Assembly: GCA_900768815.1 (NCBI GenBank)
Contig: CAAGEE010000018.1
Coordinates: 67,138 to 131,137 of the forward strand
Direction of reading: 5' to 3'
Length of the DNA: 64,000 nt
Origin: Bacilli bacterium
GTDB taxonomy: Bacteria > Bacillota_I > Bacilli_A > RF39 > UBA660
Part shown: one piece after another, positions 3,681 through 28,960 of the stretch
Layout of the letters: each line of letters begins with the position of its first letter
How positions within the stretch are numbered: the first letter of the stretch is position 1
Program-made: the position numbers and the translations under genes
Notes under the pieces: model-generated
The model's database searches: none
Seen by the model: only the letters and a program-made list of their open reading frames with translations
Told to the model about the DNA's origin: nothing

Positions 3681-3709
3681 TTGCTAAAGAGAAAAATATT
3701 TATTATAAT
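3681..3709 (+). promoter_or_regulatory. sigma-A-type promoter upstream of the TasA-like operon
   Basis: TTGCTA, 17-nt spacer, TATAAT (3681-3686 and 3704-3709), about 55 nt upstream of the 3765 gene. Confidence 0.5.
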
Positions 3710-3764
3710 TAAATAGAAATAGTAGGAAAGGTGGCCGGAGTGAGAATACAAGATATATAGGTGA

Positions 3765-4469
3765 ATGATGATGAATAATGGTGTTGAAGTAGAAGCTCAA
3801 AAAGTATATAAGCGAAAGTTATTTATAAAAGTAGTTAAAATAGCATTTCTATTACTACTTATTCTGATATCAATTATTTATTTATTTTTGTATATAGTCT
3901 ATGCTGGTGGTAGATTTACTGTTTCTCTTGATAAGAATATGTCTAATAGAAAAAACGTGTTTTTATCGGAAAATGGTAGTCTAAAAAATAAGGCTAGAGA
4001 GCTCTCGGCAGATACTATCGAATATATGGATAATATTTCCATTAAATGGTTACCAGATAATATCGATAAAGAGAAAACTGGTGCTCATAATGGGGATAAT
4101 TACATTGCCTATACTTTCTATGTAATTAATTCTGGAAAGGAAAAAGTAAACTATTGGTATGAGATTGACATAGATGATACTATTAAGAATGTTGATGAGG
4201 CCATTAGAATAATGATTTATCGTAATGGGGAAGCAACTGTTTATGCTAAAAAAAGTAAAGAAACTGCAAAAGCTGAACCAAATACGAAAAAGTTTGTTTC
4301 TTCAAAAATTGCTGTTTTGGAACAACGTAAGAATTTTAAACCTAATAGTAAAGATCGTTATACTGTAGTTGTGTGGATTGAAGGTGATGACCCTGAATGT
4401 AAGAATGATTTACTCGGTGGAGAAATTAAGTTACATATGGATTTCACTGAAGAACATGTTGACAAATGA
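3765..4469 (+). CDS. membrane-anchored TasA/camelysin-like paralog (SipW-cognate-type N-terminus)
   Basis: Basic N-region, one hydrophobic helix, then YAGGRF. The C-terminal motif WIEGDDPECKNDLLGGEIKLHMDF is shared with the next gene (YMWVEGQDVDCEDNASGGAIAYNLQF). RBS aggtga. Confidence 0.6.
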   Translation: MMMNNGVEVEAQKVYKRKLFIKVVKIAFLLLLILISIIYLFLYIVYAGGRFTVSLDKNMSNRKNVFLSENGSLKNKARELSADTIEYMDNISIKWLPDNIDKEKTGAHNGDNYIAYTFYVINSGKEKVNYWYEIDIDDTIKNVDEAIRIMIYRNGEATVYAKKSKETAKAEPNTKKFVSSKIAVLEQRKNFKPNSKDRYTVVVWIEGDDPECKNDLLGGEIKLHMDFTEEHVDK

Positions 4470-4486
4470 TTAAGGAGTGAAGAGGA

Positions 4487-5494
4487 ATGGAAAAGAAAAA
4501 TTCTAAAAGAAAAAGAAAAAGTAAAAAAATATTTATAGCAATATTAATGATTTTATTTACTGGTGTTATTTTAACTGCTAGTACTTATGCATGGTTTACT
4601 GCTAATAAGACAGTTACAGTTAGTCAAATTGATGTTAACGTTACTACTTCTGAAGGTTTGCAAATTTCAACAGATGCTGTTAATTGGAAAACTATAATTT
4701 CAAATGATGATATTACTGGTGCTAATTATCCAGGTGTTACTAACCAATTACCTAGTCAAACGGCTAGTATTAAACCAACATCTACAGTAGGTGATATTGA
4801 TACTGCTACTGGATTTATGAAAATGTTTGTTGGTAGTGTAACAACTAATGGTACTGGTGCTTATATTTTAACAACTACACAAAGTACAGAAACTAATTCA
4901 ACTACTTCTGGTGACTTCGTAGTATTTGATTTATATTTCCAAACTAACGTTGCTTCAACTATTTATTTAACAGCTAACTCAAACGTTCAAGCTTCTGGAA
5001 ATGCTACTGGTATTCAAAATGCTGCTCGTGTTGGTTTTGTAATTCAAGGTAATGCTGCTGCTGGTACTGATGCTACTACAGTTAGGGCATTAAAGAATGA
5101 TGGTACAGTAAAACCTGTTATTTGGGAACCAAATTTTGATGTTCATACAGCTGCTGCTGTTAAACATGCATCAGACGTTTACAATATAGTTACTTCTCAA
5201 GCTGGTGGTTCTAAAATTCCATATGTTGGTGTACAAGCTGATATTGCTGAGGGTGCTAATATAGCATTAAATTCAACTGATGCTACTTACTTTAAATCTA
5301 TTACCCCAGATATATATAGTGTTAATGCTGGTATACCTGCTGATAAATATGCACAAGCATTTGCTTTACAAGCTGGTATTACAAAAGTAAGAGTTTATAT
5401 GTGGGTTGAAGGACAAGACGTTGATTGTGAAGATAATGCTTCTGGTGGAGCTATTGCTTATAACTTACAATTCAGTACTTTAGATAAGGCATAA
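4487..5494 (+). CDS. secreted TasA/CalY/camelysin-family protein with SipW-cognate signal peptide; candidate major fiber subunit
   Basis: Signal peptide KRKRKSKK-IFIAILMILFTGVILTASTYAWFTANKT matches the SipW-cognate class (hydrophobic core then AYAxF). Mature part is T/A/G/V-rich and almost Cys-free. Strong RBS ggagtgaagagga. A strong terminator follows directly. Confidence 0.7.
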   Translation: MEKKNSKRKRKSKKIFIAILMILFTGVILTASTYAWFTANKTVTVSQIDVNVTTSEGLQISTDAVNWKTIISNDDITGANYPGVTNQLPSQTASIKPTSTVGDIDTATGFMKMFVGSVTTNGTGAYILTTTQSTETNSTTSGDFVVFDLYFQTNVASTIYLTANSNVQASGNATGIQNAARVGFVIQGNAAAGTDATTVRALKNDGTVKPVIWEPNFDVHTAAAVKHASDVYNIVTSQAGGSKIPYVGVQADIAEGANIALNSTDATYFKSITPDIYSVNAGIPADKYAQAFALQAGITKVRVYMWVEGQDVDCEDNASGGAIAYNLQFSTLDKA

Positions 5495-5508
5495 TTAATT
5501 ATAAATGT

Positions 5509-5536
5509 TAAGACCTTCGTATGAAGGTCTTTTATT
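5509..5536 (+). terminator. rho-independent terminator
   Basis: Hairpin aagaccttcgtatgaaggtctt followed by ttattc. Confidence 0.65.
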
Positions 5537-5555
5537 CTATAAGAGGGTGAAGAAG

Positions 5556-26829: not shown

Positions 26830-27580
26830 GAAGAATGCCGAAGATGTATATGTAGCTTTACAAAAACAAAGAAAAAAGATAAAGAGACGTAGTATCTTTT
26901 TAGCACTCTTTGTATTTGGGGTTAATGCTTATGCTTGGTTTGTATTTTTATCAAATGCTAGTGTTAATGTTAAAGCTAATGTTGTTTCATGGGATGTAAA
27001 CTTTTTAGATGAAAATTCACCGGTTAAAGATATGGAAATAATTACTGAAGATTTATATCCTGGTATGCCTAAATATCAAAAGACTATTAAAGTTTATAAT
27101 AGAAGTGATGTTAGAGCTAGTTTCTCTTTCAAAGTAGATAGCATTACTGTCCTTGGAGAAGAGACAATGAAAGGTACAGATACTACAGAAGATGCAATTA
27201 ATTACTTGAAAGATACCTATCCTTTTATTGTTACATTTAATTATGATAAAACCACTCTAGAGAAAGATGATCATTTAAACTTTACAATTAATATCGAATG
27301 GCCATTTGAGAAGGGTGAGGTTTTAGCAAAAGATTATTATAAGCTTACTAAACAATATAAGTATGATCCATCAGTTAGTTATTATTCATTACTTAATGGT
27401 AATTATGTGGAGGAGTCTATTAGTGAAACTGAATTTAATACTGATAAGACTAATTTATATTTAGAAAAAGATGATGCTGATAGTTTTTGGGGTAGTACTT
27501 GTAAAGCTTATAAAACAGATAATGAAGAAGTATGTTTTAAATTTCATATTTTATTAACAGTTACACAGATAGGAGAGTAA
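26804..27580 (+). CDS. secreted TasA/camelysin-like paralog (SipW-cognate signal)
   Basis: RBS gtaggtga 6 nt before ATG 26804. An in-frame GTG/ATG at 26795/26798 is also possible. KKRKLSRKN then LALFVFGVNAYAWFVF, then an EWPFEKGE motif. Confidence 0.6.
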   Translation: MPKKRKLSRKNAEDVYVALQKQRKKIKRRSIFLALFVFGVNAYAWFVFLSNASVNVKANVVSWDVNFLDENSPVKDMEIITEDLYPGMPKYQKTIKVYNRSDVRASFSFKVDSITVLGEETMKGTDTTEDAINYLKDTYPFIVTFNYDKTTLEKDDHLNFTINIEWPFEKGEVLAKDYYKLTKQYKYDPSVSYYSLLNGNYVEESISETEFNTDKTNLYLEKDDADSFWGSTCKAYKTDNEEVCFKFHILLTVTQIGE

Positions 27581-27626
27581 TTAGTTTACGTATAGTTTAG
27601 ACTAATTACTTGCTTTTTTCTTTTTT
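27577..27626 (+). terminator. rho-independent terminator
   Basis: Stem gtaattagt...actaattac followed by a T-rich tract. Confidence 0.5.
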
Positions 27627-27667
27627 CATGGTATTCTGTACTTAGATAGAAAAATAAGGAGGATTTT

Positions 27668-28288
27668 ATGGATAAAGAAGTTTTAAATAGTAGGGCTGGA
27701 CAAGAGACTTTAAGAGAATATTATGATAATGTTAAACCTGCACTTGTTCCTGTTGACAAAGAAGGAAATTTGTCTTTTGATTTGCCATTTTCTCTTGGCA
27801 AACTTGGTGAAGCGGAATTAAGAGAGATACATCCTATGATAGGTTTGACGGAGAATGGTGTTTATGGTGATGATGCTAGAAGAGAATTAAATATTGTTGT
27901 TAATGGTTTATTTGATGAAATGTTTATGTCACCTGAGGATAGAGCTTATTCTAGAGCTTGTAGAAATGCAGAAATTAAAGGTTTGGAGAAACCAGCTAGG
28001 ACAGAACAACTTATAGCTGAAGAAATGCATTCTGATTCATTTGAAGAGTATAATGTTATGCTAGATGGTATAAAGAATAAGTTTGGTGAATTTAGAAAAA
28101 TTTCACGTAAAAATTATATTGATTCTGATTCTATAAACAATATGATGAAACAAGATGCTGTTGAAGATGTTGCTAATACTGCTTATACTCGTAAATCTGA
28201 TCCGGAAATGGAAGAAATTATGCGAGAAAGTGAAACGGCTTCAAGAAAGACTGATAATGAGTCTAGTATAACATTTAGAAATTGGTAG
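27668..28288 (+). CDS. hypothetical protein (206 aa)
   Basis: RBS aaggagg 7 nt upstream. No domain recognised. Confidence 0.55.
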   Translation: MDKEVLNSRAGQETLREYYDNVKPALVPVDKEGNLSFDLPFSLGKLGEAELREIHPMIGLTENGVYGDDARRELNIVVNGLFDEMFMSPEDRAYSRACRNAEIKGLEKPARTEQLIAEEMHSDSFEEYNVMLDGIKNKFGEFRKISRKNYIDSDSINNMMKQDAVEDVANTAYTRKSDPEMEEIMRESETASRKTDNESSITFRNW

Positions 28289-28295
28289 ATTAGCA

Positions 28296-28327
28296 TAAAA
28301 AATAGTGATGTTACAATCACTATTTTT
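28296..28327. terminator. bidirectional terminator between convergent genes
   Basis: Hairpin atagtgatgttacaatcactat flanked by an A-run and a T-run. Confidence 0.6.
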
Positions 28328-28960
28328 TTAGGCTTTCTTTTGTGAGAATCTAGCACTAGCTGATATTATTATTTTACTATTTTCGTCTATTGCTACTTCT
28401 GTGTCTTTTTGATTATCCATTTCATTGTCTGCTTCATCATACCATTCAAAATATAATCTTATGATAGTACTTGGAGTATTGTGAATTATTGTACCAGTTA
28501 TAGCAGTTTGATTTGTATAATCGATAATAGTTTGATTGGTATCAGATGGATTTATAATGTAACCCGTTGTTTTTAAATCACTTACAGCGTTATTTTCGTC
28601 GACCACTAAACTTATTTCATATGTAAAATCAACATCTACATTGGTAGAATCAATTATAATATCACAATGCCCTTTAGAACCTGGAGCTAAGACTGAGTCT
28701 TTAGTGTATTCATTACCTTCAAAGATTGGTACTATGTCATTAGTTAGGACACTTTTATTTTCAACAGCTTCATCATTAATCTTAATATTCCATTTAGCTA
28801 TTTCTAGATTAACATTTCCACTTACTTGTTTTCGGTACTTAGCTAGAGAGGTTTGAAATAAATAAGTAAACGATAGGCAAATTATAACTACAAATATAAT
28901 GATAAAACGTAAATCTTTTTTTGTATTATTTTCATTTTTCATACTATTACCAACTTTCAT
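28328..28960 (-). CDS. secreted TasA/camelysin-like paralog (minus strand)
   Basis: N-terminal KNENNTKKDLR then a hydrophobic core then SFTYLFQTSLAKY. EWYDEADNE motif as in the other paralogs. It is the only minus-strand gene in the locus. Confidence 0.55.
   Translation of the reverse strand: MKVGNSMKNENNTKKDLRFIIIFVVIICLSFTYLFQTSLAKYRKQVSGNVNLEIAKWNIKINDEAVENKSVLTNDIVPIFEGNEYTKDSVLAPGSKGHCDIIIDSTNVDVDFTYEISLVVDENNAVSDLKTTGYIINPSDTNQTIIDYTNQTAITGTIIHNTPSTIIRLYFEWYDEADNEMDNQKDTEVAIDENSKIIISASARFSQKKA

Follow-up and report, generated by a model that had tools for sequence, protein, structure and literature searches.

We analysed a 64-kb stretch of DNA (the window) on contig CAAGEE010000018.1 of a Bacilli bacterium and found within it a locus of about 25 kb, with 18 open reading frames (ORFs) from 3.7 to 29 kb, which combines signal peptidases of the SipW type, a set of exported proteins, a giant surface protein and a membrane-anchored GTPase related to the restriction enzyme McrB. 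The locus is an uncharacterised member of the barely known kind of system called CoCoPALM and not an expanded tasA operon. On balance we consider it somewhat probable that this is a dedicated machine making a cell-surface fibre or adhesive appendage, which is known here from its genes and from a single-chain structural model. All the ORFs listed for the locus by a first-pass annotation of the window were present, at the same positions or a few codons away.

The McrB-like module which had been noted in the first-pass annotation was borne out for both the McrB-like gene and the DUF2357 gene, and it comprises three genes:

22242-23309, + strand: p22242, 355 amino acids (aa), cytoplasmic protein encoded directly 5' of the GTPase in most layouts.
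23312-24847, + strand: p23312, 511 aa, McrB-family AAA+ GTPase with an N-terminal transmembrane (TM) segment at 56-74 and a coiled coil, an FtsB-like architecture.
24858-25982, + strand: p24858, 374 aa, McrC-like DUF2357 protein, predicted GTPase activator.

p23312 matched E. coli McrB (PDB 6hz4, 2.7e-5), the NCBIfam McrB model (2.8e-6) and, in the AAA+ core only (residues 180-317), the PADLOC model PDC-M26A (1.3e-37). Walker A (GISGTGKTS), Walker B (LDEMN) and a sensor motif (I-N-N-D-D-S-T) were invariant in 17 p23312 sequences, and all 17 had a conserved heptad-spaced segment at about residues 80-125, after the TM segment. The Pfam DivIC/FtsB model gave no match at E <= 0.1, and the likeness to FtsB is therefore one of architecture only. 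DUF2357 is the N-terminal domain of McrC, which activates McrB. This domain was matched in p24858 at 7.2e-13, above the gathering score, and in 15 members altogether, which equals the number of p24858 orthologs sampled; among the families matched by these orthologs there was no nuclease, and they had no conserved D...(D/E)xK or PD-(D/E)xK motif. The proteins in the p22242 position (about 325-355 aa) of eight divergent loci were homologous (hhalign 99.1% over 294 columns), and p22242 itself had no family match. The locus is thus like E. coli McrBC in the AAA+ GTPase core, with its Walker A and B and sensor Asn motifs, and in a partner with the DUF2357 activating domain, but a TM segment and coiled coil stand in place of the DNA-binding domain, the partner is without a nuclease and the genes lie within an export/assembly locus. 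An active McrBC type IV restriction system was ruled out, as there is neither a nuclease domain nor a DNA-binding domain. A complete type IV restriction endonuclease of the GmrSD type (GmrSD_N 1.6e-37, GmrSD_C 2.1e-14) is encoded elsewhere in the window, at 54717-56549 on the + strand, separately from the McrB-like gene.

CoCoPALM was named in one paragraph of a census of McrBC systems by Bell et al. (eLife 2024, PMC11090510) as a large clade whose GTPase carries a fused FtsB-like TM and coiled-coil domain and occurs in association with proteins of the signal peptidase family, with the description deferred to a forthcoming publication. According to the same census, E or another D usually comes after the NxD motif in this branch, the McrC homolog likewise bears fused coiled coils, and the McrC homologs of coiled-coil GTPases are often without a nuclease. 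The term was not found elsewhere in the literature searched, and a search for SipW together with McrB returned irrelevant co-mentions only. The first-pass annotation had stated that no system was known to couple SipW paralogs, a giant adhesin and an AAA+ protein; this has been superseded, because the link between a membrane-anchored McrB-like GTPase and signal peptidases had already been named by Bell et al. In the locus, p23312 is an McrB-like GTPase carrying a TM segment and a coiled coil at its N-terminus, its partner is a nuclease-less McrC homolog, and a SipW-like gene, usually adjoining the DUF2357 gene, was found in 16 of the 16 related loci with a GTPase (DUF2357 in 15 of the 16, the sixteenth being ended by the end of its contig). 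The I-N-N-D-D-S-T motif fits NxD followed by a second D, and is equally readable as NxxD, as it is aligned to NTAD of the E. coli protein. From this architecture and context we infer that p23312 belongs to the CoCoPALM clade. The CoCoPALM paper gives no account of the substrates, pseudo-peptidase, giant protein, p5662 or p22242.

Three genes of the locus encode proteins of the signal peptidase fold:

9344-10597, + strand: p9344, 417 aa, signal peptidase I paralog with catalytic residues kept; its gene overlaps the start of the giant gene.
19165-19923, + strand: p19165, 252 aa, SipW-fold pseudo-peptidase with a charged C-terminal tail; a terminator-like hairpin comes next, at 19922-19943.
25984-26829, + strand: p25984, 281 aa, signal peptidase I of the endoplasmic reticulum (ER)/archaeal type (SipW-type) with an acidic C-terminal tail.

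Judged by its sequence, p25984 is a true signal peptidase I of the ER/archaeal type: it scored 74 bits against TIGR02228 (cutoff 51.85) and its GSMEP and THR catalytic motifs aligned with those of human SEC11A and SEC11C. The other two matched the SipW model weakly (p9344 at 9.1e-11, below the TIGR02228 cutoff, and p19165 at 4.6e-5) and were found to be homologous by profile-profile comparison, with hhalign probabilities of 99.4% for p9344 and p25984, 99.4% for p19165 and p25984 and 91.6% for p9344 and p19165, so that the three SipW paralogs of the first-pass annotation are upheld. In p9344 the catalytic Ser, His and Asp (GSMSG, THR and GD.NN..D) were kept across 47 sequences, and Peptidase_S24 was matched in 15 members, the number expected of the p9344 orthologs sampled. 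After its second membrane segment p9344 has a conserved C-terminal domain of about 160 aa, which would be cytoplasmic. p19165 had already been called inactive; it has GDM and VRT at the positions of GSM and THR in the other two paralogs, and no Ser or His is conserved in its family (16 sequences). On these residues, p19165 shares the fold but falls outside the enzyme class. Streptococcus pyogenes SipA/LepA is a catalytically inactive, signal-peptidase-like pilus assembly factor of the LepB (P) type which works with sortases on LPXTG pilins. p19165 resembles it in having a signal-peptidase fold without catalytic residues and in being encoded in a locus for a putative surface fibre, but p19165 is of the ER/SipW type, and the locus is without an LPXTG motif or a sortase match.

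Seven ORFs encode proteins with a basic tail and one N-terminal TM segment, where the first-pass annotation had counted at least eight secreted proteins:

3765-4469, + strand: p3765, 234 aa, signal-anchored exported protein with TM segment 26-44; candidate membrane anchor or nucleator.
4487-5494, + strand: p4487, 335 aa, candidate major fibre subunit with a basic N-terminus, a TM segment, the motif STYA/WFTANK and a beta-sandwich domain.
19996-20607, + strand: p19996, 203 aa, small exported subunit of family 2 with the motif GTYTA/YE; hhalign 100% to p28328 and 92% to p20617.
20617-21234, + strand: p20617, 205 aa, small exported subunit of family 2 with the motif RAYA/SYQ; orthologs in 12 loci.
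21246-22181, + strand: p21246, 311 aa, exported protein with the motif FTYA/KYI, weakly related to family 2 (hhalign 43% to p28328); 13 loci.
26795-27580, + strand: p26795, 261 aa, exported protein with the motif NAYA/WF, a distant relative of family 2 (hhalign 78% to p28328); 10 loci.
28328-28960, - strand: p28328, 210 aa, small exported subunit of family 2 with the motif TSLA/KYR; convergent; hhalign 100% to p19996.

A six-frame motif scan of the window found exported proteins of this type only inside the locus. Just past the TM segment, six of the seven have a cleavage consensus (read by eye) of [AST]-[YWL]-A/x-[YF], the slash marking the proposed site, with the instances STYA/WF, RAYA/SY, FTYA/KY, NAYA/WF and TSLA/KY. 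Mature TasA begins AFND (checked against PDB 8aur), which gives the site GTWA/AFND, and this is the same pattern as the consensus of the locus. The seventh protein, p3765, which was found in 69 of 80 loci and had no Pfam or NCBIfam family, is without the TasA-type cleavage motif and probably stays membrane-anchored.

Profile comparison with hhalign placed p19996, p28328 and p20617 in one family (family 2; 100% and 92%), with p26795 as a distant member (66-78%) and p21246 as a marginal one (43%). p4487 was related to the other exported proteins through the signal region only, and its match to p26795 (91%) covered only the N-terminus. p3765 and p4487 have in common only a C-terminal motif of 33 residues, W-[IV]-E-G-x-D-x-x-C...GG (BLASTP 2.7e-4; hhalign 75%), which had been pointed out in the first-pass annotation, as had an E-W motif that we found in p19996, p26795 and p28328; p19996 also has a conserved A-P-G..G, a W and a terminal Q. 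The exported proteins thus make up two or three families at the least, with little or no relationship between them. No locus protein had an LPXTG-like motif within its last 60 residues and no sortase family was matched by the locus ORFs tested in the Pfam and NCBIfam scans, and a sortase-dependent pilus was ruled out by the absence of both from the locus.

The first-pass annotation had described these proteins as TasA/camelysin-like, and as a statement of family membership this did not hold. Peptidase_M73 (PF12389) matched none of the seven exported proteins of the window at E <= 0.1, none of 90 p4487-family members at E <= 0.01 and none of 72 small-family members at E <= 0.05, and as a positive control it matched 120 of 120 retrieved TasA homologs. 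Against a TasA/CalY profile built from 60 sequences, each carrying PF12389, hhalign gave the small family a probability of 7%, over 49 C-terminal columns only, and the p4487 family 1.1%, over the signal peptide and first strand only; comparison of every exported family with a single TasA sequence gave no support. More than 160 exported-family members had no Pfam or NCBIfam match. The label is fair as a functional analogy. The Bacillus tapA-sipW-tasA and B. cereus sipW-tasA-calY operons are like the locus in encoding an ER/archaeal-type signal peptidase beside its substrates, in their cleavage consensus (T-W-A/A-F in TasA, T-Y-A/W-F in p4487) and in pairing a major subunit with an accessory or anchor protein. 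In contrast to the three genes of the Bacillus operon, the locus has 17-18, including three peptidase paralogs of which one is inactive, a giant adhesin candidate, a putative GTPase motor and several cytoplasmic proteins, and its exported proteins have no detectable Peptidase_M73 homology. The sipW-bsaA-bsaB-bsaC matrix operon of Clostridium perfringens encodes BsaA, which is remotely homologous to TasA and forms isopeptide bonds, and BsaC, the secretion of which depends on type IV pilus genes (PMC11580942, PMC7395162). This operon is like the locus in its SipW gene with several TasA-like paralogs, its membrane-anchored polymer and its large accessory protein, but it is without a McrBC-like module and, unlike BsaA, the locus proteins have no detectable homology to TasA.

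The candidate major subunit p4487 belongs to a family with 1963 homologs and 1804 50%-identity cluster representatives, for which neither Pfam nor the PDB sequences gave a match. Its gene is preceded by an AAGGAG Shine-Dalgarno sequence. Within the family the segment after the proposed cleavage site was nearly invariant, and E214, H220, E308, D311 and D313 were invariant, together with a single conserved Cys; because of this conservation one might speculate that these residues form a metal site or an inter-subunit contact. An AlphaFold2 model was made with a 90-sequence alignment, which replaced a shallow one (>= 61% identical; pLDDT, the predicted local distance difference test score, 60). 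The new model (pLDDT 92.6, predicted template modelling score 0.85) consists of an N-terminal helix, a linker and a beta-sandwich, with low confidence only around residues 32-40, the linker at the proposed cleavage site. A Foldseek search of the PDB with this model returned nothing at E <= 0.001 (best match E = 0.045), and the best structural matches, all weak, were donor-strand fibre subunits including TasA, to which p4487 is perhaps distantly related in structure. With the donor-strand filaments of archaea, namely the Sulfolobus thread (Saci_0406, 7pnb), the Pyrobaculum bundling pili (AbpA) and the Pyrodictium cannulae (CanX), the likeness is that of a generic beta-sandwich only; there is no sequence relationship, the host of the locus is a bacterium and the machinery differs.

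The remaining proteins of the locus are a giant surface protein and several cytoplasmic proteins:

10594-19113, + strand: p10594, 2839 aa, giant signal-anchored surface protein with TM segment 17-35; orthologs in 51 loci.
5662-7329, + strand: p5662, 555 aa, conserved cytoplasmic protein without a TM segment, encoded 3' of the major subunit in most loci; 65 of 80 loci.
7403-7816, + strand: p7403, 137 aa, small cytoplasmic protein present in close relatives only; 6 of 80 loci.
7806-9245, + strand: p7806, 479 aa, low-complexity, lineage-specific and variable protein with a C-terminal hydrophobic segment at 405-423; 6 of 80 loci; a terminator-like hairpin comes next, at 9244-9265.
27668-28288, + strand: p27668, 206 aa, cytoplasmic protein with no TM segment and no family match; no ortholog detected in 80 loci.

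p10594 had been described as a beta-helix giant. The ORF, the N-terminal TM segment and a repeat period were borne out, with a Gly/Asn-rich region at about aa 980-1900 that has a period of about 24-25 residues (Gly autocorrelation peaks at 22-26, 49 and 75); the solenoid fold is a prediction that fits this period, and p10594, which had no Pfam, NCBIfam or PDB match, is probably a beta-solenoid adhesin. No match to p5662 was found in Pfam, the PDB or PADLOC. PDB sequence searches with the p4487, p5662 and p24858 family profiles and the giant protein returned nothing significant, and scans of the locus proteins and about 260 orthologs against Pfam, NCBIfam, PHROGs and PADLOC gave meaningful matches only to SipW/S24, McrB/AAA_5/PDC-M26A and DUF2357. 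It is doubtful whether p27668 belongs to the system. The p7403/p7806 pair was missing from most other species. It was hypervariable (113-137 and 410-479 aa) among otherwise near-identical strains (L001-L006, around 12900-14760), and p7806 has an Asn/Ser-rich low-complexity core and an acidic poly-Asp tail. A 43-aa ORF was called between the terminator of the major subunit and p5662 in six of six related contigs (L001 11070-11201; by analogy 5556-5687 in the window).

In a scan of one genome per species, at least 565 stretches were found to encode a p4487 relative, almost all of them in metagenome-assembled genomes (MAGs) labelled Bacilli, Mollicutes, Mycoplasmatota, Erysipelotrichaceae or Clostridium sp. 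CAG. The synteny counts given here are for the 80 loci retrieved out of these. The question whether the gene order is conserved or island-like could be answered from these loci: both the genes and their synteny are conserved in up to 80 genomes at species level, and the arrangement is not due to chance. The commonest layout was module A (3765-10594, in the order 3765-4487-5662-9344-giant), and p9344 was encoded 5' of the giant gene in most of the 51 loci showing the latter. Module B (19165-28328, in the order 19165-19996-20617-21246-22242-23312-24858-25984-26795 and then 28328 in reverse) was upstream of module A in three loci (L019, L030 and L051), and the two were interleaved in six (L060, L068, L073, L074, L080 and L086). 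A reduced version, which begins with 3765-4487-SipW-GTPase-DUF2357 and continues with three further proteins of the [ST]YAW type, another SipW and a large protein, was found in L071, L075, L077, L082 and L083. Modules A and B were thus linked in at least four gene orders, in genomes with a major subunit only 43-57% identical, and the minus-strand orientation of p28328 at the module boundary was kept in 9 of the 11 loci having it. Median identity to the window proteins was 64% for p23312, the highest among the loci showing module B; it was 76% for p3765 (51% in the divergent set), 54% for p4487 (48% in the divergent set), 55% for p9344, 38% for p5662 and 27-40% for the small subunits. A conserved putative motor and anchor with fast-diverging exposed subunits would be expected of a surface appendage. 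One of the reduced loci, L071, also has, between its first SipW and the McrB-like GTPase, a gene (11636-12883, + strand) whose product begins like a classical type IV prepilin (MKCKTGFTLVELLAVIAV...). At 1708-3612 (+ strand) and 4699-5373 (- strand) this contig has a separate mini-operon for a third SipW-like protein and two small proteins with the N-termini GATFAWFS and GTSYAYYV, neither of which matched Peptidase_M73, and, nearby, a gene for a collagen-like GPTGPTGP repeat protein.

The locus is flanked by ordinary chromosomal genes, namely histidine phosphatase, RNA methyltransferase, PFOR, RecG and a predicted pseudouridine synthase (assigned by eye from its translation), and the GC content was low across the window (25-33%). 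Because of this uniform composition and the housekeeping flanks the locus is not a recently acquired island, and a phage or mobile-island origin was ruled out by the same two features together with zero PHROG matches. Rfam and tRNA scans of the whole window found no riboswitch or other RNA family and no tRNA. Many contigs from human gut metagenomes, up to about 1.4 Mb long, carried identical copies of the proteins, and one cluster member was annotated from 'Mycoplasma sp. CAG:877'; the host is an uncultured gut member of Bacilli close to this organism, and its genome is probably small. Two elements near the first genes bear on transcription:

3681-3709, + strand: promoter-like site TTGCTA-17-TATAAT 5' of the first gene, with 10 of 12 matches in a consensus scan.
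5510-5531, + strand: terminator-like hairpin directly 3' of the p4487 gene, with nine pairs, four of them G-C, and then a T-rich tail.

The promoter-like site is weak evidence, as such sites were no more frequent in the stretch than in shuffled sequence. Terminator-like sites numbered seven where 0.9 were expected, and the terminator reported right after the p4487 gene by the first-pass annotation was located at 5510-5531. From the hairpins and promoter-like sites the likely transcription units are 3765-4487 (ended by this hairpin), 5662-7403-7806 (hairpin 9244-9265), 9344-10594-19165 (hairpin 19922-19943), 19996 to about 27580, and 28328 alone on the minus strand.

Taken as a machine for a surface fibre or appendage, the locus could work as follows. 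The seven exported proteins would enter the membrane via their basic N-terminal tail and TM segment, and p25984 and/or p9344 would cut six of the precursors at the TasA-like consensus, p4487 between A35 and W36. The cut would bare the highly conserved N-terminal strand, and that of p4487 could plausibly enter the beta-sandwich of the next subunit by donor-strand joining, as in TasA fibres and archaeal threads. p4487 would be the abundant shaft subunit, because its gene has a strong Shine-Dalgarno sequence and its own terminator, and p3765 the membrane anchor or nucleator, because it is predicted to be uncleaved, is more conserved and has the acidic/Cys motif at its C-terminus in common with p4487. 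The small proteins of family 2 may be minor or tip subunits, the 2839-aa solenoid protein the adhesin and the pseudo-peptidase p19165 an assembly chaperone, by analogy with streptococcal SipA. A ring of p23312, switched on by p24858 and alongside p22242, would supply nucleoside triphosphate (NTP) energy from the cytoplasmic side; the GTPase may extract, order or gate membrane-embedded precursors by acting on their basic tails, or it may instead act on the long charged cytoplasmic tails of the peptidases. More tentatively, and in our view rather doubtfully, a membrane-anchored McrBC-type GTPase derived from restriction systems could be the motor of an unrecognised NTP-driven pathway of filament assembly in Gram-positive bacteria, with subunits of new families, ER-type processing and donor-strand joining. 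The multi-subunit fibre with dedicated peptidases proposed by the first-pass annotation accordingly stands as one system which includes the AAA+ module, given the linked modules, the SipW-like gene in 16 of 16 GTPase loci and the cleavage consensus, and falls as far as the TasA family is concerned.

Several points weigh against a fibre machine. Sequence comparison places no exported protein in any characterised fibre family. The profile searches which had been suggested with the first-pass annotation were positive for TIGR02228 in p25984 and negative for Peptidase_M73 and also for TIGR04088, against which p4487 scored 15.3 bits (E = 0.016), below the cutoff of 19 bits, and the other exported proteins had no match. 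Because the relatives were sampled by anchoring on p4487, the linkage statistics drawn from our set of loci are partly circular. To our knowledge TasA-type and thread fibres need no NTPase, which leaves the proposed role of the GTPase without precedent.

The locus could instead make a non-filamentous coat, an S-layer-like lattice, a matrix or a set of SipW-dependent adhesins or binding proteins, with the GTPase serving secretion quality control or regulation. We consider this unlikely, though it would agree with the lack of a fibre homolog at E <= 0.001 in the Foldseek search, and the retention of the system in small genomes (contigs up to about 1.4 Mb) fits an envelope component. A near-invariant strand after the cleavage site, a split into major and minor subunits, a membrane-anchored paralog and a pseudo-peptidase are, however, typical of polymerising pilus and fibre systems.

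A conflict or defence system, as a CoCoNuT-like branch of McrBC in which the surface proteins are sensors or decoys (for example of phage contact) that signal to the GTPase, appears quite improbable. CoCoPALM has been placed beside the CoCoNuT defence systems in the NxD clade (PMC11090510), p23312 matches the candidate defence protein PDC-M26A, and the GmrSD restriction gene is 26 kb downstream. That match is limited to the AAA+ core, however, and no other locus protein matches PADLOC; no nuclease or other effector domain was detectable and no phage-related families were found in the locus, which has a housekeeping context and uniform GC and is spread over many species without a patchy distribution. 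Modules of the McrBC kind are mobile and are often inserted into other loci. Together with the Pfam and NCBIfam matches to McrB and the McrC N-terminal domain, this could suggest an independent, degenerate type IV restriction module sitting inside an expanded sipW-tasA-like operon, but we regard this as very improbable and as the weakest of the alternatives, because no other part of the locus is as conserved or as tightly linked as this pair, from which everything that acts on DNA has gone: the pair stays beside SipW and exported-protein genes in at least four gene orders with the major subunit 43-57% identical, no gene tested was more conserved than the GTPase, the DNA-binding domain is replaced by a conserved TM segment and coiled coil, the partner is without a nuclease, and the association of GTPase and signal peptidase was found by an independent census anchored on the GTPase (PMC11090510).

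It should also be noted that GC skew was strongly positive in every 2-kb bin of the window (1-64000; 0.14-0.55) and that the + strand holds nearly all genes; the window in its entirety seems to belong to a single leading-strand replichore. At 32816-33787 (+ strand) there is a gene for a 323-aa membrane-anchored protein consisting mostly of tandem P-V-V-E-P-[VA]-[AT] repeats, with a local GC of up to 0.36; the repeat gives long spurious antisense ORFs (32806-33432). Upstream of the histidine phosphatase gene, L001 and L002 have two unlike neighbourhoods although their major subunit is identical, one with TetR, an ABC transporter and FtsX and the other with SpoVAC, a C11 peptidase, ScpA/B and KilA-N. 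This difference suggests that a rearrangement breakpoint lies immediately upstream of the locus, and the SpoVA gene hints that these 'Mycoplasma-like' MAGs are possible spore formers.

With this locus, the single paragraph on CoCoPALM gains a parts list: a candidate major subunit and anchor, putative minor subunits, two peptidases predicted to be active and one dead, a probable adhesin and a three-gene GTPase module. Almost all its components are families without annotation, which makes the locus attractive as a target, and if the fibre model is wrong there is still a clearly bounded group of about ten conserved families with no assigned function. If the proposed assembly pathway is real, it would be a new class of fibre biogenesis beside the sortase, type IV, chaperone-usher, curli and TasA classes, and one that is common in small-genome gut Bacilli. 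If the fibre model is right, a large clade of uncultured small-genome bacteria of the human and animal gut would spend about 25 kb on an appendage without a database family, the assembly of which would involve a GTPase borrowed from restriction enzymes and without a known cell-biological role, and this appendage would be a likely determinant of attachment to the host, to mucus or to partner cells.

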